Shown here: positions 1,837-46,690 of the stretch, piece after piece
How the letters are laid out: every line of letters begins with the position of its first letter
How positions within the stretch are numbered: the stretch's first letter is position 1
Virus record (IMG/VR): IMGVR_UViG_3300045988_101944
Source: a virus
Direction: 5' to 3' (one strand)
DNA length: 55,877 bases
The notes under the pieces: generated by a model
Databases searched by the model: none
Seen by the model: only the letters and a program-made list of their open reading frames with translations
Told to the model about the DNA's origin: nothing
Position numbers and translations under genes: made by a program

Positions 1837-2521
1837 CTTGCTTACCTCCCCTGAATATTAAATTATTGTCTTTTTTCCAATGTTCAGTAGCTTTAATTCG
1901 TGGTAAATTGTTTGTAACTTTTGCGGCACATTTAATACATTTTTTACCTTCTCTGTCAAGTGGCTTCCCACAGCAATAACAAAGTCCGTAAGTCGTTCTT
2001 TCACTTCTTGTTATTCCTACCTTTTTTTGTTTTTTGCGTATTTCTCTGCCTTTTATGCGTCTTTTCTCAAGACATTCTTCACAATGTATATGTCCCTCTG
2101 CACGCTCTCTTATTTTGCACATAATGCAAAGATTTTGTTCATCACAACGTTGTCTTGCTTTTTGATAAACTTGTTTATTATACGCTTCTTTGCTGCCAGC
2201 TGTTTTTATTGCGCATTTAGCATTTATTTTTTCGGCATACGCTAAACACTCAGGGCAAGTTTTTTCACTGCTAAACAATTTGTTTTTGCCGCATTTCGGA
2301 CATAGCCCCAGCGTTTTGAAAAACGCTCTATCTTCTCGATATTTATTCTTCTTTTTTTCGGCACATTCCTTGCATAGAGTTTTGTTTGCCATTGCAGGTT
2401 TACCACAATTAGTACATAATCCATGCTCTTTTCTTTGACGATAACGCTCTTTATACCATTTCTTTTTGTTTTCACTATACATAATTTTTTTAGGAGCAAA
2501 ACCGGTTTTTACTGTGCACAA
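1817..2521 (-). CDS. Protein with four tandem CxxC...CxxC zinc-ribbon modules separated by basic linkers
   Basis: 234 aa. The four modules are CTNC..CKEC, CPKC..CPEC, CIMC..CEEC and CYCC..CIKC. Confidence 0.6.
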   Translation of the reverse strand: MCTVKTGFAPKKIMYSENKKKWYKERYRQRKEHGLCTNCGKPAMANKTLCKECAEKKKNKYREDRAFFKTLGLCPKCGKNKLFSSEKTCPECLAYAEKINAKCAIKTAGSKEAYNKQVYQKARQRCDEQNLCIMCKIRERAEGHIHCEECLEKRRIKGREIRKKQKKVGITRSERTTYGLCYCCGKPLDREGKKCIKCAAKVTNNLPRIKATEHWKKDNNLIFRGGKQDDKIQK

Positions 2522-40758: not shown

Positions 40759-41967
40759 TTATTCGTTTGCTTTGAAATTGTAAATCGGTTTAATAATGTC
40801 AACTATTTCAACAGTATCTTTTATATTTCCAATTATTTCATCCATTGTTTTATATGCCATAGGGCTTTCATCAATCGTAGATGTATTTACGGATGTTGTA
40901 AATATTCCATCCATTGCTTTTTGATACTCTTCTAGCAAAATGCTTTCTTTTGCTTTTGACCTGCTCATTGTTCGCCCTGCTCCATGCGGTGCTGAATAAT
41001 TCCAATCTTCATTTCCTTTGCCAATTCCCAAAATGCAACCGTCACGCATGTTTATCGGTATTAGTACCTTTTCGCCTGTTTTTGCAGAAATAGCACCTTT
41101 ACGAACAATATTTGTATCGTGTTCAATGTAGTTGTGAATTGTTTGAAATCGTTCTGTTTCTTTTGTAACTTTCCAACCCATATAGTAACAAATAATGCTC
41201 TGAATGGCTCTTCTGTTAATTTCCGCAAACTCTTGACATAATTTCATATCGTGCAAATACATTTCTCTATGTTTTCCAACAAGATATGATAACTCTCTAG
41301 GGATTTTAGTTGTATTTGCTTCGTAGGACTGCTTTAATTCTTTGATAGCCTTGCTGATTTCTCTTTCTCTTTTACATTTTTTGTATTCAGCAATCAATTT
41401 CTCACTATCTTGTTTAAAATTCGATTTTCCCGATATATCATCAATCGCCATTTGCTGATATATTTCTGCAACTTGCTTTCCGACATTTCTACTTCCCGAA
41501 TGAATAACAAGATATTTATTATTCTTGCTATCGCTATCAACTTCGATAAAATGATTGCCGCCTCCCAACGTGCCGCAACTCCTTTTCAGCCAATCTATAT
41601 TTTTCAACTGTTCCTTGCAATACAATTTTTCAATAATATCGCTTGCGACAGACGAGTTTTCTTCTCCATGAACTTTTCTACCGCTTGGAACATATTCTCT
41701 AATGATGTTATCCAATCTCTCAAAATCAATATCAATATTCCCCAAGTTTGTAGTAAGCATCCCACAGCCTATGTCAACTCCAACAATGTTCGGTATTACT
41801 TTTTCTCCTAAATCAGCAGTAAACCCGATAACACACCCTGCTCCTGCATGAACATCTGGCATAATTCTTATCTTACAATCCGAAAATGCTGGCTGTTTAA
41901 CAAGCGTATATATCTGATTTAACGCTTCCTGTTCTATATTTTCTGTAAATATTTTCAAATCAGCCAT
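40759..41967 (-). CDS. rtcB: RtcB RNA 3'-phosphate/2',3'-cyclic-phosphate to 5'-OH ligase
   Basis: 402 aa with the RtcB motifs MPDVHAGAG, GVDIGCGM, GGGNHFIE, HSGSRNVG and SAPHGAGR. Confidence 0.9.
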   Translation of the reverse strand: MADLKIFTENIEQEALNQIYTLVKQPAFSDCKIRIMPDVHAGAGCVIGFTADLGEKVIPNIVGVDIGCGMLTTNLGNIDIDFERLDNIIREYVPSGRKVHGEENSSVASDIIEKLYCKEQLKNIDWLKRSCGTLGGGNHFIEVDSDSKNNKYLVIHSGSRNVGKQVAEIYQQMAIDDISGKSNFKQDSEKLIAEYKKCKREREISKAIKELKQSYEANTTKIPRELSYLVGKHREMYLHDMKLCQEFAEINRRAIQSIICYYMGWKVTKETERFQTIHNYIEHDTNIVRKGAISAKTGEKVLIPINMRDGCILGIGKGNEDWNYSAPHGAGRTMSRSKAKESILLEEYQKAMDGIFTTSVNTSTIDESPMAYKTMDEIIGNIKDTVEIVDIIKPIYNFKANE

Positions 41968-41992: not shown

Positions 41993-42457
41993 TCAGCAAT
42001 TTATTTTAATGCCCTCTGTTAATATGGCGGTTTTTTCCTCATTCAGAATTGTATTTCCGTTTTCATCCGTTTTATGCCATCGTGCATTAACTTTAATCAT
42101 TGGGCTTTGGTTTGAATGACTGATAAAATGTAACTCCATGTCCGTACATCTTACTTTTTCACCGTCAATAAATATTTGTGCGGTTTTGCCATCGGATATT
42201 ATCTTGATTTTTTCTTTTGTAACTTCAATAGGCTCGCATTTGTACATGGATTTCCATGAATCTTCATGCCACTTATCTATTTCATCAATAACAGCACTCG
42301 CATAATAAGTCGGTTTGCTCATTGTTTTCGTTCGGCTACACAATACTTCTTGATAGTTTTTGATAATAAATTCGCAATCATCGCCGTTATACTCATAATC
42401 TTTATAAAACTGATAAAACGATTTTAGATTTTTAATAAATCTAATCAGTGTTTTCAT
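41993..42457 (-). CDS. Hypothetical protein
   Basis: 154 aa track ORF. Confidence 0.5.
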   Translation of the reverse strand: MKTLIRFIKNLKSFYQFYKDYEYNGDDCEFIIKNYQEVLCSRTKTMSKPTYYASAVIDEIDKWHEDSWKSMYKCEPIEVTKEKIKIISDGKTAQIFIDGEKVRCTDMELHFISHSNQSPMIKVNARWHKTDENGNTILNEEKTAILTEGIKINC

Positions 42458-42463
42458 TTCTAT

Positions 42464-42643
42464 TCACCCCTTAAAGCAATCTCTCAACGCTTGCCTGTCT
42501 GCTTCATTATCTGCCACAATAACTGGTTCATCTTCTAAAATGGAACAATCTATAGGCTCACCGTTTCTACCACCTATTTTATGTGGCTGTATCTCTCTAA
42601 ACGCTCCACATTCTATTGATTTAATTACATCTGCCATGCTCAT
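42464..42643 (-). CDS. Small hypothetical ORF (59 aa)
   Basis: Own translation MSMADVIKSIECGAFREIQPHKIGGRNGEP...; it fills an otherwise empty gap. Confidence 0.35.
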   Translation of the reverse strand: MSMADVIKSIECGAFREIQPHKIGGRNGEPIDCSILEDEPVIVADNEADRQALRDCFKG

Positions 42644-42654
42644 TTTTAAAACTC

Positions 42655-42873
42655 CTATTCTGCCAACAACTTATGCAGTTCCAACGCTTCATCATCTTTG
42701 ATAAGTTTTCTGATATAGGGTTTTCCGTTATAGTTCTCAAATACCATTGCTAACGGTCGGTCTCCTGTTTCCAAGCCTAAATCAAACGCAACTGACATTA
42801 CTTCTTCGCCAGCTTTTTCAACTCTAGCTTTTGGAATTATCACATTTTCAGGCATTTTAAATATTTTACTCAT
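42655..42873 (-). CDS. Hypothetical protein
   Basis: 72 aa track ORF. Confidence 0.4.
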   Translation of the reverse strand: MSKIFKMPENVIIPKARVEKAGEEVMSVAFDLGLETGDRPLAMVFENYNGKPYIRKLIKDDEALELHKLLAE

Positions 42874-42890
42874 TCTTCCACCTCGCCAAA

Positions 42891-43163
42891 CTATTTATGA
42901 TTCTTCCACCAAAACAAAATTTTTTCACGTGGGATAGCATATGTACTGTGCATAAATTCTTCTGAACCCTCATAAACAATTACGGAGTTAAAATCAATGC
43001 GGTCTTTAAATAGTTCACAGTTTTTTGCAACTTTATCCATGGCATATACTATTGCCTCATCATAAGTCTTAAACCATTTTTCTGCTGCACCATATGCAAG
43101 AGGGCAAGTTCCGCTCTCGTCAAATACGATATATCCGTCTTTACTTTGTGTTAATTCATTCAT
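42891..43163 (-). CDS. Hypothetical protein
   Basis: 90 aa track ORF. Confidence 0.4.
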   Translation of the reverse strand: MNELTQSKDGYIVFDESGTCPLAYGAAEKWFKTYDEAIVYAMDKVAKNCELFKDRIDFNSVIVYEGSEEFMHSTYAIPREKILFWWKNHK

Positions 43164-43573
43164 TTTTCCACCTTTCTATACGGATTAAAAAATTCTTTGT
43201 CCTGTCCGATTCCAAGATGTTCTCTCAACGCAAAATTAGTTATCTGCTCTCGATTAAAAGAATTTCTGACAATATAATTTGCTAAATCCCCATCTTTCCA
43301 TCTGTCCGTACCTGTCATAGAATCATAAATCTGTTTATATTCTCCGGTCAGCTTGCCAAATTCAAACCATCCCAAGTCAAGTGTTACTCCGTAATCATAA
43401 AATCCCTTGTCGCACCACTTTCTGACATAATACATTAACTGCTTGTATGAGAACCCAAGCCTTTCAAAAATATTTCCAATAGTTCTTATGCTCAATTCAC
43501 GGTCGCTCGAACGCAATTTTCTTTTCTGCTCATTCACGCAAGCTCTAAAAAATATTTCTTCTAATGGCTTCAT
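43160..43573 (-). CDS. Hypothetical protein
   Basis: 137 aa track ORF. Confidence 0.45.
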   Translation of the reverse strand: MKPLEEIFFRACVNEQKRKLRSSDRELSIRTIGNIFERLGFSYKQLMYYVRKWCDKGFYDYGVTLDLGWFEFGKLTGEYKQIYDSMTGTDRWKDGDLANYIVRNSFNREQITNFALREHLGIGQDKEFFNPYRKVEK

Positions 43574-43833
43574 TCTTTCACCAGCTTTCTACCACAGATA
43601 GGGCAAAACACAATCTCAAAATATCCTCTCGCTATTCCATTCTTGCCCCAAATAATGATTGACGGATTATCTTCGCCATGAAGATATACTTGGCAATCTT
43701 TCAAATCCGTTTCTGTTGCGCATTTATTGATTGCAATTTCTTTTCCCGTTATCATTCCTTTTTGTGAATGATATTTGTCACAAAATTCACACATACTTAG
43801 TCCTCGCTCAGTTTTTTGCCACACATAGGGCAA
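43570..43833 (-). CDS. Zinc-ribbon protein
   Basis: 87 aa with CEFC...CPIC. Confidence 0.45.
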   Translation of the reverse strand: MPYVWQKTERGLSMCEFCDKYHSQKGMITGKEIAINKCATETDLKDCQVYLHGEDNPSIIIWGKNGIARGYFEIVFCPICGRKLVKE

Positions 43834-44027
43834 TAAGATATTTGCTTTTTTAATGTTGTAAGATTAAAGTAATCTAATAAGTGATTAGAAACTATTTCAA
43901 ACATCAATTCATTGCCTTTTATTGTAGCTTGAAAAACTTGTATTTTCTCGTTCATTATGCCGTCTTGTTCTACATTTAAAATTATAGGTTTAGCTTTATT
44001 ATTGCAAAACTTACACATATTCATCAT
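43797..44027 (-). CDS. Zinc-ribbon protein
   Basis: 76 aa with CKFC...CPMC. Confidence 0.45.
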   Translation of the reverse strand: MMNMCKFCNNKAKPIILNVEQDGIMNEKIQVFQATIKGNELMFEIVSNHLLDYFNLTTLKKQISYCPMCGKKLSED

Positions 44028-44506
44028 TCCTTTTTGTTGTATTTACAATACACAAGCAAATGCTCCGCAATCTGTTCTAACTCGTCAATTCCATACTTAC
44101 TGCTTTCAGTTTTTCTCCCTGTAAACGAAATACTGTGTTCATATGTTTCATTGATGAGCATATCGACAACTTCTAGTGGGTCAAACGGCAACTCTTTGTT
44201 TTCGTTTTTCTTATTTTCACATTTTTCCAAGTCATATTTTAATTGTTTGTTGTAGTTACTTAAATCACTGCATTTTTTCTTCCAGCACTCGATTTCATCT
44301 ATAAACTTTTTGTCATGCTCCGTAAAATCAAGTTTATCAAAAACAATCTCTAATAAGCCTCCAGTCATAATGCTCTGTTCACATTCTGAACAATGTACCG
44401 TCACTCCGTTTTCTTTTAATAATTTACCAATAGTGTTTGTAAACTCCATAGCCATCTCTTTATCTTTTATGTCAGTTATTTTTCTTGTTAATTCTTCAAA
44501 ATCCAT
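44024..44506 (-). CDS. Hypothetical protein
   Basis: 160 aa track ORF. Confidence 0.45.
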   Translation of the reverse strand: MDFEELTRKITDIKDKEMAMEFTNTIGKLLKENGVTVHCSECEQSIMTGGLLEIVFDKLDFTEHDKKFIDEIECWKKKCSDLSNYNKQLKYDLEKCENKKNENKELPFDPLEVVDMLINETYEHSISFTGRKTESSKYGIDELEQIAEHLLVYCKYNKKE

Positions 44507-45036: not shown

Positions 45037-45093
45037 ATTTCTTACCTCTCACTTAAATTATTAAATCACCTATGAACTCACAGTTGTCGTAAA

Positions 45094-45203
45094 ATAGTTG
45101 CCGTGGGAGTCGAACCCACCCGACCCAAACAATGCTCGACTGCTTTTGAATCTGCAAATTCTACTTGCAGAAGTGTTTTTCGTTGACCGATAATGAGCAA
45201 CTA
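45094..45203 (-). ncRNA. 109-nt tRNA-like gene with an 8-bp acceptor plus 5-bp T stem (tRNA-Sec/allo-tRNA-like geometry) and non-standard internal arms
   Basis: Folded by eye. Acceptor TAGTTGCT/GGCAACTA; D-position TTATCG-GTCAA-CGAAAA; hairpin TCTGCAA-GTAGAAT-TTGCAGA; extra arm AAGCAG-TCGAGCA-TTGTTT; T arm GTGGG-TTCGACT-CCCAC. Confidence 0.45.
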
Positions 45204-45271
45204 CTATCCATACATCTCCCATCGACCGGAACTATTGCAGTAGTGCCCGACCAAGTGGAGATAAAGATAAG

Positions 45272-45339
45272 CACGCCCGGAAAGCATCGAACTTTCGTTA
45301 GAGGTTTTGGAGACCTCATTCTGGCCAACAGACAGACGC
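45272..45339 (-). tRNA. tRNA-Trp(CCA) with a reduced D arm
   Basis: Anticodon arm GAGGT-CTCCAAA-ACCTC; T arm GAAAG-TTCGATG-CTTTC; acceptor GCGTCTG/CGGGCGT (3 G.U pairs); D arm only CTG-TTGGC-CAG. Total 68 nt. Confidence 0.55.
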
Positions 45340-45371
45340 ATATAAAGTTTTCACGATAGTTTTGAGGATAA

Positions 45372-45500
45372 GTAGATAGGTGTGGATTTGCACCACACAG
45401 GAAAGACTTACTTTCTCATAATGTCCCCTGAGAAATACTTTCTCTGTATTGCGTTTTGCAATAGACATTTCATAGCGTTTACCTATTCCGCCACTATCTA
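45372..45500 (-). ncRNA. 129-nt tRNA-like gene whose anticodon domain is replaced by a roughly 75-nt multi-hairpin insert
   Basis: Acceptor TAGATAG/CTATCTA; D arm GCG-GAATAGGTAAA-CGC; T arm GTGTGG-TGCAAAT-CCACAC (G at T-loop position 2). The insert has the closing stem AATGTC/GACATT, with hairpins TATTGC-AAAAC-GCAATA and GAGAAA-GTA-TTTCTC inside it and GAAAG-TAAGT-CTTTC 3' of it. Confidence 0.45.
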
Positions 45501-45584
45501 CCACCCGCGTCGTAACTAGTATTTTTGCGTAGGCATATTATTTGGTTATTCAATATGCCGTCAGTAAACAACAGCATATTGCCA

Positions 45585-45664
45585 TCGGATAGACAGGGCT
45601 CGAACCTGTGACTCCCTCCGCTACCATTACCGCAGTGGGTTTCTCCCAACTGAACTACTATCCG
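45585..45664 (-). ncRNA. 80-nt tRNA-like gene with an anticodon arm 7 nt too long (7-bp stem, 10-nt loop)
   Basis: Acceptor CGGATAG/CTATCCG (perfect); D arm GTTC-AGTTGGGA-GAAAC; T arm ACAGG-TTCGAGC-CCTGT; anticodon region CCACTGC-GGTAATGGTA-GCGGAGG. No 5-bp/7-nt solution exists in any register. Confidence 0.5.
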
Positions 45665-45860
45665 TTATATAGTTTAATTAGCTGCTAAAACAGGTTTCTC
45701 AACTCACAGCATTGCATATCCCCACTACGAACATTGATATGCGTTCCCACTCGAATTGATGTGGTGTGGATTTGAACCGCACATAGCAATCACTTTGCAA
45801 CAGGTAACACCCATACAGGTTTCTTTGCCGACATTGTTTTCTGCACAAGTGTTGACATAA

Positions 45861-45943
45861 CGCAGACACAAGGATTTGAACCTTGACAGCATTTCTGCTG
45901 GATAGCTTAGCAAGCTACTGTGATACCATTACACCATATCTGC
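45861..45943 (-). tRNA. tRNA-Ser(GCU), type II
   Basis: Acceptor GCAGATA/TGTCTGC; anticodon arm GTAGC-TTGCTAA-GCTAT; variable arm AGCA-GAAA-TGCT; T arm CAAGG-TTCAAAT-CCTTG; discriminator G. Confidence 0.85.
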
Positions 45944-46135
45944 ATAACTGGTCAGTTTCCGTTTTTACTTACTCCACACTGCCCTAAGTGTAAGGTTCTT
46001 TTAGTCAGCGGTTAACGCTATCTTTTGAATAACAACCGCTCAATTCAGTTCCCTGTGCTAAGTTTAACCGGTATATTGATTAGCACCTGCATTTCTATAA
46101 TAAACGCACTAGGAGTGTACTGACAACATCACCAA

Positions 46136-46207
46136 CTGGCATAGCAGGTATCGAACCTACGACCCACAGATTAACAATCTGTTGCTCTACCACTGAGCTA
46201 TATACCA
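46136..46207 (-). tRNA. tRNA-Asn(GUU)
   Basis: TGGTATA-TA-GCTC-AGTGGTA-GAGC-A-ACAGA-TTGTTAA-TCTGT-GGGTC-GTAGG-TTCGATA-CCTGC-TATGCCA-G forms a canonical cloverleaf. Confidence 0.9.
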
Positions 46208-46461
46208 AAATTGCATACACCTCTGTATAGGCTTTTAAGATGGTATGCAAGCACCTGTGTGTTATGGGGGTGTGAAATTTGTAATGGAACTACATTAGTC
46301 CAGTACGGAAAAAGTATGTAAGTTCGGGCATCGTGGGATAGACACCCGAACAACCACACCGAGCCGTGCGATGGCTCTTAACAGCATTCCGCTAGTGTGG
46401 GAAAGGAGTTTTTCTCCGCGATTTTGCAAGAAGAAAAACAAAGATGGCATATCTTGCCAAA

Positions 46462-46533
46462 CTGGGGTAATGGGATTTGAACCCATGATGTAGCAGTCAA
46501 AGTGCTATGCCTTAACCTCTTGGCGATACCCCA
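46462..46533 (-). tRNA. tRNA-Gln(UUG)
   Basis: TGGGGTA-TC-GCC-AAGAGGTTAA-GGC-A-TAGCA-CTTTGAC-TGCTA-CATC-ATGGG-TTCAAAT-CCCAT-TACCCCA-G, with the U1-A72 pair typical of bacterial tRNA-Gln. Confidence 0.9.
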
Positions 46534-46690
46534 TTATTCCGCAAGACTGTTATTGCCTTGCGGATGTGATATGTAATATTTTTATGAAGTACAAAAGATA
46601 TGAATTAAAATACAAATATTAAACAAGTTTCAAAAAATGTTTCACTTTAAATTGTTGGTGCTCTTATTGCCATACTTTATCACCTCAGTT

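Follow-up and report, generated by a model that had tools for sequence, protein, structure and literature searches.

Genes and RNA features at the locus

The window, by which we mean the whole stretch of DNA analysed (55,877 nt, from IMG/VR virus record IMGVR_UViG_3300045988_101944), encodes a large terminase, a portal and a major head protein, and thus comes from a tailed phage. It also codes for a serine recombinase, a Rha regulator and a G39P-type loader, and because these were found the window was judged, from its gene content, to represent a temperate siphophage of Bacillota. A non-coding stretch of approximately 1.6 kb houses three ordinary tRNA genes, Gln(UUG), Asn(GUU) and Ser(GCU), which were called by ARAGORN and Rfam, together with the RNA element that is the subject of this analysis (Table 1). 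A gene for an RtcB RNA ligase lies 3.4 kb from the element; among the 127 loci examined, RtcB was confined to the window's own clade (10 loci). The small ORFs nearby gave no Pfam, NCBIfam or PHROG match, and they were rejected as a candidate splicing endonuclease for this reason. No Ro/TROVE gene was present among the window proteins scanned.

Table 1. Coordinates of the element, its parts and its surroundings in the window (RNA letters are those of the gene strand).
Feature	Position	Strand	Remarks
RtcB RNA ligase gene	40759-41967		phrog_1075, E = 3.5e-128
Small ORFs	41993-44506
Non-coding stretch with element and tRNA genes	about 45037-46640
Whole tRNA-like RNA gene	45372-45500	minus	129 nt including discriminator C at 45372; CCA not encoded
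Acceptor stem, 5' strand UAGAUAG	45494-45500	minus	7/7 Watson-Crick pairs with 45373-45379
U8-G9 and Leu-type D arm GCG-GAAUAGGUAAA-CGC	45475-45493 (D arm 45491-45475)	minus	3-bp stem
Type A insert	45399-45474	minus	76 nt, replaces anticodon arm and variable arm; homologues
Insert closing stem, 5' strand AAUGUC	45464-45469	minus	pairs with GACAUU 45420-45425; RNAalifold
Hairpin 1, UAUUGC-AAAAC-GCAAUA	45447-45463	minus	compensatory changes at three pairs, none broken
Hairpin 2, GAGAAA-GUA-UUUCUC	45430-45444	minus	in MFE and alifold consensus
Insert closing stem, 3' strand GACAUU	45420-45425	minus	RNAalifold
Variable-arm-position hairpin GAAAG-UAAGU-CUUUC, then CU junction	45401-45415	minus	fold and RNAalifold; register ambiguous
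T arm GUGUGG-UGCAAAU-CCACAC	45380-45398	minus	6-bp stem, G at position 55 (site of U55)
Acceptor stem, 3' strand CUAUCUA	45373-45379	minus	partner of UAGAUAG 45500-45494

Predicted fold of the element

A first-pass annotation, made from the letters of this DNA, had described a tRNA scaffold with a perfect 7-bp acceptor, UG and a D arm, a T arm and several hairpins in between, and all of these parts are present on the minus strand. Its finer details, a type-II-like D arm, G at position 55 and a third hairpin in the variable-arm position, were likewise correct. The length that it gave for the insert (about 75 nt) is close to the 76 nt found, whereas the register of the third hairpin is ambiguous.

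The single-sequence minimum free energy (MFE) of the element was -36.2 kcal/mol (z = -3.9), and none of 200 dinucleotide shuffles folded as well. The MFE structure retained the acceptor, the D arm, the T arm and hairpins 1 and 2, and the closing stem of the insert was absent from it. When 20 homologues carrying the same insert type (type A) were folded together with RNAalifold, the closing stem and all hairpins were recovered. Within these 20 homologues, hairpin 1 covaried (UAUUGC/GCAAUA was exchanged for UAUCAUA/UAUGAUA), the closing stem was invariant, and hairpin 2 varied little, apart from several changes to G-U and a small number of broken pairs. The variable-arm hairpin showed little covariation, and the insert loop sequences were unconserved. 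The closing stem and hairpin 2, being nearly invariant in this sample, are thus backed by conservation rather than by covariation.

The element combines canonical tRNA features, the 7-bp acceptor and a D arm with an 11-nt loop that holds A14, A15, G18 and G19, with the loss of others, namely the 5-bp anticodon stem with its 7-nt loop (U33 and positions 34-36) and a 5-bp T stem with U54-U55-C56. Its discriminator is C73, and its junction before the T stem reads C-C-U, as compared to the family consensus U-C-A-U, so that the invariant U is kept and the conserved A is replaced by C. ARAGORN made no call at this position and Rfam gave no match there at E<=10, as would be expected since the anticodon loop is absent; these negative results agree with the earlier statement that the element has no 7-nt anticodon loop.

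Several known kinds of RNA were considered and rejected. Rfam searches, run on the window at gathering score and at E<=10 and on 15 related loci at gathering score, returned ordinary tRNAs and one hammerhead elsewhere; the first-pass annotation had suggested such a search, and no known family was found at the element at E<=10. Small self-cleaving ribozymes (hammerhead, twister, pistol, hatchet, HDV-like) were likewise absent from the element at E<=10 and from the elements of the 15 related loci at gathering score. A role as antisense regulator of the phage's own genes was dismissed, because the 55.9-kb window contains no complementary match to the element of 12 nt or longer, and matches of 10 to 11 nt occurred near chance.

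A covarying family of phage RNAs

We scanned IMG/VR, GTDB and GenBank phages by patterns, using exact motifs for retrieval; metagenome 3300045988 dominates the IMG/VR matches. A search of IMG/VR with the exact 26-nt T arm and acceptor yielded at least 12 loci with 5' parts (acceptor and D arm) and 3' parts (T arm and acceptor) identical to those of the window. While these flanks were constant in the 12 loci, the middle consisted of at least four unrelated sequences of 58-104 nt. Looser patterns consisted of the D loop followed by the T loop, the T arm alone or the D arm alone. Overall, more than 150 distinct relatives with at least 71 different acceptor stems were found among the matches listed, and at least 136-148 distinct elements could be parsed, in which the acceptor stem occurred in 71 versions, the T stem in 16 and the D stem in 17.

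The first-pass annotation had proposed covariation in homologues as a check of the fold. In 71 distinct chassis, the acceptor, D and T helices were paired in 98.0% of cells, a figure to be read with the fact that the parsers passed acceptor and T stems with no more than one mismatch; when the positions were set from the D and T loops, 47 of 57 sequences still passed. Both-sided changes occurred at 13 of the 16 pairs, and the covariation score was 0.69, as compared to 0.17 for shuffles and at most 0.16 for slid partners. Six of the seven acceptor pairs covaried, with G7-C66 invariant, as did four of the six T-stem pairs, the sixth of which alternated between G-C and A-U, and the D stem appeared as GCG/CGC, GUG/CAC, ACG/CGU and CUG/CAG. 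The structure of the chassis is therefore far beyond chance. Fortuitous acceptor pairing, named earlier as grounds for refutation, is contradicted by this covariation and by the MFE structure, which keeps the acceptor. G-U pairs were found on the gene strand only, indicating that the structure is that of the RNA of this strand.

Across the family, U8, A14, A15, G18G19 and a U resembling U48 were invariant or nearly so, and the upper half and L-shaped core of a tRNA are retained. The consensus before the T stem was U-C-A-U, and its final U, at the place of U48, was present in 105 of 106 insert types. The discriminator was A in 53-57% and U in 34% of members, nucleotide 74 was U in 52%, and CCA was encoded in 4 of 148 members. 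The family is described neither by Rfam 15, ARAGORN or GenBank annotation nor in the full-text literature searched, including searches with literal sequence strings. The element is one member of a large phage RNA family that has not been annotated so far. The architecture originally suggested for it, a tRNA chassis that carries a different RNA domain, has been borne out by these comparisons, since the chassis covaries across more than 150 relatives and the middle is replaced wholesale.

Relationship to tRNA-Leu(UAA)

The scan with the D arm alone left the rest of the molecule unconstrained, and 140 elements were parsed among the matches listed. Approximately 20 matches were genuine phage tRNA-Leu(UAA) genes: their anticodon loop reads CUUAAAA, the variable arm is normal, the T stem has 5 bp and a canonical UUCRANU loop, and position 73 is A. 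At least 95 of the 140 parsed elements combined the same D arm with the UGCAAAU T loop, a 6-bp T stem and an insert, and a few matches were single-nucleotide variants of the UGCAAAU loop. The D arm of the element is identical to, or differs by 1 nt from, that of genuine phage tRNA-Leu(UAA), and alignment with the annotated tRNA-Leu-TAA of Enterococcus phage EFDG1 gave the same D arm. Because genuine tRNA-Leu(UAA) and the elements have this D arm in common, it follows that the family derives from phage tRNA-Leu(UAA).

The family D arm can be written as UG followed by GCG-GAAUAGGUA(A/G)A-CGC, to which positions 45493-45475 of the window conform. Positions 45398-45373 conform as well to the 3' part, a 6-bp T stem that ends in GG/CC and encloses the loop UGCAAAU, abutting a 7-bp acceptor with G7-C66. 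Loss of the anticodon loop, the presence of G55 and the shift from a 7/5 to a 7/6 acceptor/T geometry go together. The 6-bp T stem gives an acceptor/T stack of 13 bp (12 bp in canonical tRNA). We know of no earlier description of a 7/6 acceptor/T geometry with G55. The idea that the acceptor stem imitates that of the phage's own tRNA-Leu was discarded, because the element of EFDG1 has GUCACUG, unlike the GCGGGUA of the EFDG1 tRNA-Leu.

Types, layout and exchange of the insert

Insert lengths ranged from 27 to about 200 nt across the family. The 130 distinct inserts fell into about 107 clusters with less than 20% of 8-mers in common, as compared to only 16 T stems. In the common layout, a short linker or a stub of 3-5 bp directly follows the D arm, often as UUA(C)...(G)UAA; next comes a stem, often GAU.../...AUC, that encloses the bulk of the insert, and then AU and the T stem. 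This layout can be read from sequence as a type II tRNA with a shrunken anticodon arm and an enlarged variable arm. Most relatives thus have the main insert enclosed by a stem at the variable-arm position, and in short family members the anticodon arm is reduced to the 3-5-bp stub or to a single-stranded linker. The type A insert of the window has the opposite layout, with a three-way junction at the anticodon-arm position and a small hairpin at the variable-arm position.

Type A was found in more than 80 IMG/VR contigs, in at least 29 distinct variants and on at least three chassis. Most type A copies ride on the chassis UGAUGUG/CACAUCA with a canonical UUCAAAU or UUCGAAU T loop, indicating that inserts and chassis recombine and that G55 is not obligatory for type A. 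Conversely, the UAGAUAG chassis of the window carried at least four unrelated inserts among near-identical phages. Inserts are thus exchanged between chassis by recombination. Several different members can coexist within one phage.

The first-pass annotation regarded the insert as a candidate functional domain. Within one type, structure is kept, as seen from the compensations in hairpin 1; across the 106 insert types, on the other hand, nothing is common except the junctions. As compared to shuffles, inserts were modestly more structured (mean z = -0.72, p = 6e-9), and since the excess is only modest, the insert could be for the most part filler under no constraint, in which case the chassis alone would carry the function.

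Three further observations concern the inserts themselves. In some relatives a second insertion splits the D loop precisely between G18 and G19. Nested T-arm-like hairpins occur in some inserts. Covarying 6-nt palindromes were seen in type B inserts, an observation specific to that type. General homodimerisation through palindromic loops was rejected, as palindromes were observed in 53 of the 106 insert types, versus 67 expected.

Distribution and genomic position

Among the matches listed, four came from GTDB representative genomes: Oscillospiraceae, Clostridium and Lachnospiraceae MAGs and one Metabacillus isolate. In the GenBank phage matches listed, the element was never annotated as an RNA gene. 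Carriers include the Lactiplantibacillus plantarum phages Sha1, LP65, Lenus, Satyr, Maenad, phiJL-1, 8014-B2, P1, P2, Lpa804 and others, which have one chassis (GUGCUUG/CAAGCAC) with differing inserts. Further carriers are Enterococcus Schiekvirus phages, Leuconostoc phages of the LN34 group, and phages of Weissella, Listeria, Brochothrix, Bacillus and Lacticaseibacillus.

The position of the element differs among these phages. It lies between rinA and the HNH/terS/terL genes in Sha1, stops 3 nt short of the right genome end in phiJL-1, and is found within tRNA arrays in Lenus and EFDG1; in EFDG1 a separate tmRNA-like gene adjoins it. In LN34 an HNH gene precedes the element, and a stem with a U run, judged by eye to be an apparent intrinsic terminator, comes after it, which supports a stand-alone gene. 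Clustering of ORFs over 39 diverse loci revealed no conserved protein partner adjoining the element, and the sole recurring neighbours were terminase genes (6 loci). The lack of a conserved neighbouring protein in the 39 loci points to a partner encoded by the host.

Proposed role and alternatives

We consider there to be about an even chance that the element is a non-decoding tRNA look-alike that is processed as a tRNA and carries a swappable module, most likely serving as a decoy or sponge in a conflict over tRNAs. The RNA would be transcribed together with the tRNA cluster and excised by RNase P and RNase Z of the host like a CCA-less tRNA, and CCA may be added afterwards. Maturation of the tRNA type is plausible because of the scarcity of encoded CCA, the frequency of U at nucleotide 74 and the restriction of G-U pairs to the gene strand. 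As it has no anticodon, the RNA would be incapable of decoding; instead, it would be a stable tRNA look-alike that acts in trans. Through its conserved chassis the RNA would be processed, kept stable and recognised by a tRNA-binding factor, whereas its variable module would confer lineage-specific specificity or escape from recognition. In the phage of the window, such a non-cleavable decoy or sponge would operate alongside replacement tRNAs and the RtcB repair ligase.

Three points favour the decoy or sponge role: the combination of an unchanging chassis and a hypervariable insert resembles the product of an arms race, different members can coexist in one phage, and the window has replacement tRNAs and a repair ligase near the element. 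The anticodon nucleases known so far recognise the anticodon loop, and since the element lacks one, its binding to such nucleases is not assured. The function is possibly that of a decoy or sponge in the phage-host conflict over tRNAs.

A wider and more tentative proposal, which we think rather unlikely in its full form, is that phages of Firmicutes have turned tRNA-Leu into a natural 'tRNA scaffold' for modules swapped by recombination. These modules would be decoys, sponges or antitoxin-like inhibitors directed against host defences that target tRNA or other RNA, forming a cassette-like counter-defence that in the window's clade would be accompanied by replacement tRNAs and RtcB.

Alternatively, the RNA might be a chargeable tRNA-Leu that no longer decodes and is used as a leucylated amino-acid donor, or as a sink for LeuRS or leucine, outside ribosomal decoding, comparable to alanyl-tmRNA or the staphylococcal cell-wall glycine tRNAs. 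In line with this, the D arm is that of genuine tRNA-Leu, U8, A14, A15, G18G19 and the U48-like U are near-invariant, and A is the most frequent discriminator. [quoted passage not shown] The same report found that A73 substitutions lower leucylation 45-143-fold and called the G18-U55 contact critical (PMC2377443). As compared to this requirement for A73 and an intact core of U8-A14, G18-U55 and G19-C56, the window has C73 and G55; the latter changes the critical contact with G18, the discriminator is not conserved in the family, with U as a frequent alternative, and no aminoacyl-transferase gene was found nearby in the 39 loci. We regard leucylation as a genuine but improbable alternative.

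To a similar degree, we doubt that the element is a degenerate tRNA gene retained only to mark a site of processing or punctuation, or for some other role in cis, with the insert as neutral filler. It is true that inserts share nothing across types and are weakly structured on average, and that the element is frequently located between regulatory and packaging modules or beside cos ends. However, a normal tRNA or a simple hairpin would do for this purpose, and G55, the 7/6 geometry and UCAU are conserved across 71 acceptor variants. Furthermore, hairpins within one insert type are maintained by compensatory changes, and the LN34 element is the last one before the apparent terminator, not a separator.

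The first-pass annotation had also offered a precursor with a novel kind of intervening sequence, in which case an endonuclease or a ribozyme would excise the insert and RtcB would join the ends, giving a small tRNA-like RNA or a circular insert. The nearby RtcB gene, the conserved insert junctions (...UAA/G-stem...stem-C/AU, with slashes at the junctions), the intron-like second insertion in the D loop of some relatives and a type II hammerhead in a related phage are consistent with it. However, the flanks contain no anticodon arm, so that no functional tRNA could result; the conserved flanks consist of the acceptor with the D arm and of the T arm with the acceptor only, and do not make a complete tRNA. 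When all internal segments were deleted in turn in search of a hidden single intron, ARAGORN at its default threshold returned no match. In a control, ARAGORN detected the chassis at -ps80 only, and the approximately 890 internal deletions run at -ps80 gave noisy and inconsistent anticodons. There was no ribozyme, group I or bulge-helix-bulge signature, and the earlier remarks that the insert is too short for a group I intron and that no bulge-helix-bulge motif could be drawn are consistent with the lack of Rfam intron or ribozyme matches and with the single-stranded UAA and AU junctions around one stem. Moreover, RtcB is limited to one clade, and members occur in 28-kb Leuconostoc phages with flanks in which no ligase is visible. 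The idea of an intervening sequence thus fared poorly, and we consider it quite improbable.

It would be more surprising still if the element were an RNA cofactor of DNA packaging like the phi29 pRNA, with a variable module matched to the phage's own packaging proteins. In cos-type siphophages (phiJL-1, Sha1, LN34 and others) the element does lie 3-150 nt from the genome end or beside HNH/terS, and terminase was the most frequent neighbour in the ORF clustering. Large myoviruses, in contrast, have it in tRNA arrays far from the terminase, and near-identical phages have different inserts. Splicing through RtcB, a cis or punctuation role and packaging are all less likely than the decoy or sponge that we favour. 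Finally, the 62-codon ORF at 45504-45316 on the minus strand, whose frame is also open in type B relatives, has practically no chance of being the functional product, as it is refuted by two to four stop codons in relatives L004, L005, L009 and L010 and by length differences that are not multiples of three, and the substitutions follow the pattern of paired RNA.

Implications and comparison with known systems

If the proposed interpretation is true, an RNA gene that has escaped annotation is present in hundreds of phages whose hosts are lactic acid bacteria, enterococci, listeriae, bacilli and gut clostridia; the well-studied dairy and therapeutic phages LN34, Sha1, phiJL-1, LP65 and EFDG1 would be among these carriers. 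The family would add a new case of bacterial tRNA mimicry beside tmRNA and Y RNAs and provide a natural precedent for the engineered tRNA scaffold. Recognising it would also lead to better annotation of phage genomes and supply stable RNA scaffolds ready for use in Gram-positive bacteria. The constant chassis with its hypervariable insert suggests an arms race over the tRNA machinery, which is testable in tractable phage-host pairs.

The nearest decoding relative is bacterial and phage tRNA-Leu(UAA); the comparison made use of the E. coli tRNA-Leu sequence. Both have a 7-bp acceptor, an identical U8-G9 and D arm, the AU/U48 junction, a long arm at the variable position and a location in tRNA clusters. 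Unlike tRNA-Leu(UAA), the element lacks a 7-nt anticodon loop, has a T stem of 6 instead of 5 bp and G55 instead of U55, and is negative with ARAGORN and RF00005. Its discriminator is not fixed as A, and its family carries inserts of 27-200 nt.

The tRNA-like domain of tmRNA is similar in that it is a top half without anticodon, its ends form the acceptor, and a long helix leads to a variable interior. The element differs in having G3-C70 rather than G3-U70, a real D stem and a length of 80-200 as compared to 260-400 nt, and the family has no conserved tag frame or resume codon, the in-frame ORF being lost in L009. A tmRNA was rejected on the basis of G3-C70, the lack of a conserved tag ORF and a negative ARAGORN tmRNA search.

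YrlA and bacterial Y RNAs, mascRNA and the MHV68 TMER vtRNAs are also tRNA mimics that do not decode and are acted on by the enzymes of tRNA processing. In YrlA, which is linked to rsr, the termini belong to a Ro-binding stem, whereas the termini of the element lie in the acceptor stem, for which reason a Y RNA was rejected; mascRNA and the TMER vtRNAs are eukaryotic or herpesviral. No Y RNA or viral tRNA-like family was matched by Rfam at the element or in the related loci searched. Staphylococcal non-proteinogenic tRNA-Gly is diverted from translation and has G-U-G-C in place of G-T-Psi-C, as does the element; in contrast to the latter, it is a type I tRNA with a normal anticodon arm.

Mimicry of tRNA is already known from tmRNA, YrlA, viral tRNA-like RNAs and an engineered scaffold. 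In the 'tRNA scaffold' reportedly engineered by Ponchon and Dardel in 2007, a foreign RNA replaces the anticodon arm and the chimera is said to be processed and stabilised like a tRNA. Of the known systems, this scaffold comes nearest to the way in which the element may function. It differs from the element in being man-made, whereas the element is natural and derived from tRNA-Leu, has its insert at the variable-arm position in most members, and shows an altered T-arm geometry.

Other tRNA-like RNAs in the window cluster

The odd 'tRNA' of the cluster (table) was called by ARAGORN as Leu(taa) or, alternatively, as Thr with a 5-nt intron; its Rfam tRNA score was low (35.6 bits) and its acceptor stem is CGGAUAG. 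In its relatives, the 'anticodon' loop GGUAAUG becomes GGCAAUG or a 4-nt loop, AAUA, and the counterpart in L002 (L numbers denote related loci from database scans) carries a 66-nt insert in place of the entire 'anticodon' arm. This gene appears to be a second tRNA-like chassis that does not decode and whose middle region varies.

A further tRNA-like element, also kept in L011 and L193, combines the acceptor stem UAGUUGC/GCAACUA with the T arm GUGGG-UUCGACU-CCCAC, and neither a D arm nor an anticodon arm was recognisable in its sequence. The D arm of the neighbouring tRNA-Trp(CCA)-like gene is degenerate. The spacers between the tRNA-Gln, Asn and Ser genes, which had no Rfam match and no ORF support, are conserved in L004, L005 and L009 and may contain more structured RNAs or processing signals. 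Between the large terminase gene and the tRNA cluster lies the gene for RtcB, which is 88-98% identical among close relatives; in distant family carriers, no RtcB was seen adjoining the element.

Features of the window cluster and of related phages
Feature	Position	Strand	Basis
RtcB RNA ligase, phage-encoded, 402 aa	window 40759-41967	-	
tRNA-like element, 110-123 nt	window 45095-45217	-	acceptor + T arm
tRNA-Trp(CCA)-like gene, low score	window 45271-45339	-	ARAGORN, relaxed threshold only
Odd 'tRNA'	window 45585-45664	-	ARAGORN + Rfam
Remnant of another family member, 5'-truncated	window about 45760-45830	-	sequence parts
Spacers tRNA-Gln/Asn/Ser, 190-250 nt	window 45945-46134 and 46209-46461	-	
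Type II hammerhead ribozyme	L030 8558-8625	+	Rfam RF02276, 49.3 bits
tmRNA-like gene, unannotated	L355 (Enterococcus phage EFDG1, KP339049.1) about 2145-2493		

RNAs near relatives of the element

The hammerhead ribozyme was found in a related phage that also encodes RtcB; the window yielded no equivalent. In EFDG1, a tmRNA-like gene with the 5' end GGGGUAGUUUUGGUUUCGAC, the 3' T arm ACGGGUUCGAGUCCCGU and a stretch that reads as a tag, AKNEELLAVA*, ends 7 nt ahead of the family member. We also observed mini tRNA-like genes of 47-60 nt, in which only a short linker separates the acceptor stem from the T arm, as in AGAGUAG-A-CAGAUGGUGUUUUAU-CCGG-UUCGAYY-CCGG-A-CUACUCU. They sit downstream of the element in L001, L002, L006, L009, L010 and L259, and another is present at L249 860-915. 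Immediately upstream of the phiJL-1 family member is a mini tRNA-like gene that has a D arm and lacks an anticodon arm.

Variation within the family

Some family members (L148, L180, L172, L205, L194, L181, L173, L213 and L122) carry a second insertion of 40-90 nt in the D loop, exactly between G18 and G19. The motif GUGGUAAAGC is common to those of L148, L180, L213, L122 and L173, and is followed in the first two by a T-loop-like hairpin.

Type B inserts (L002, L013, L025, L069 and L092) contain an H-type pseudoknot with covarying pairings (UUGGU/ACCAG, UGGGU/ACCCA and UUCGU/ACGAG) and, at a homologous position, a 6-nt palindrome (UGUACA, UGCGCA, GUGCAC or GCUAGC). The palindrome varies in sequence yet remains palindromic, which suggests, for type B inserts alone, that the RNA dimerises.

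The window also holds a remnant of another family member, which retains the 3' portion of a type C insert, the T arm GUGCGG-UUCAAAU-CCACAC and the acceptor 3' strand CACAUCA, and lacks the acceptor 5' strand and the D arm. In contrast to this truncated copy, those in L004 and L010 are intact.
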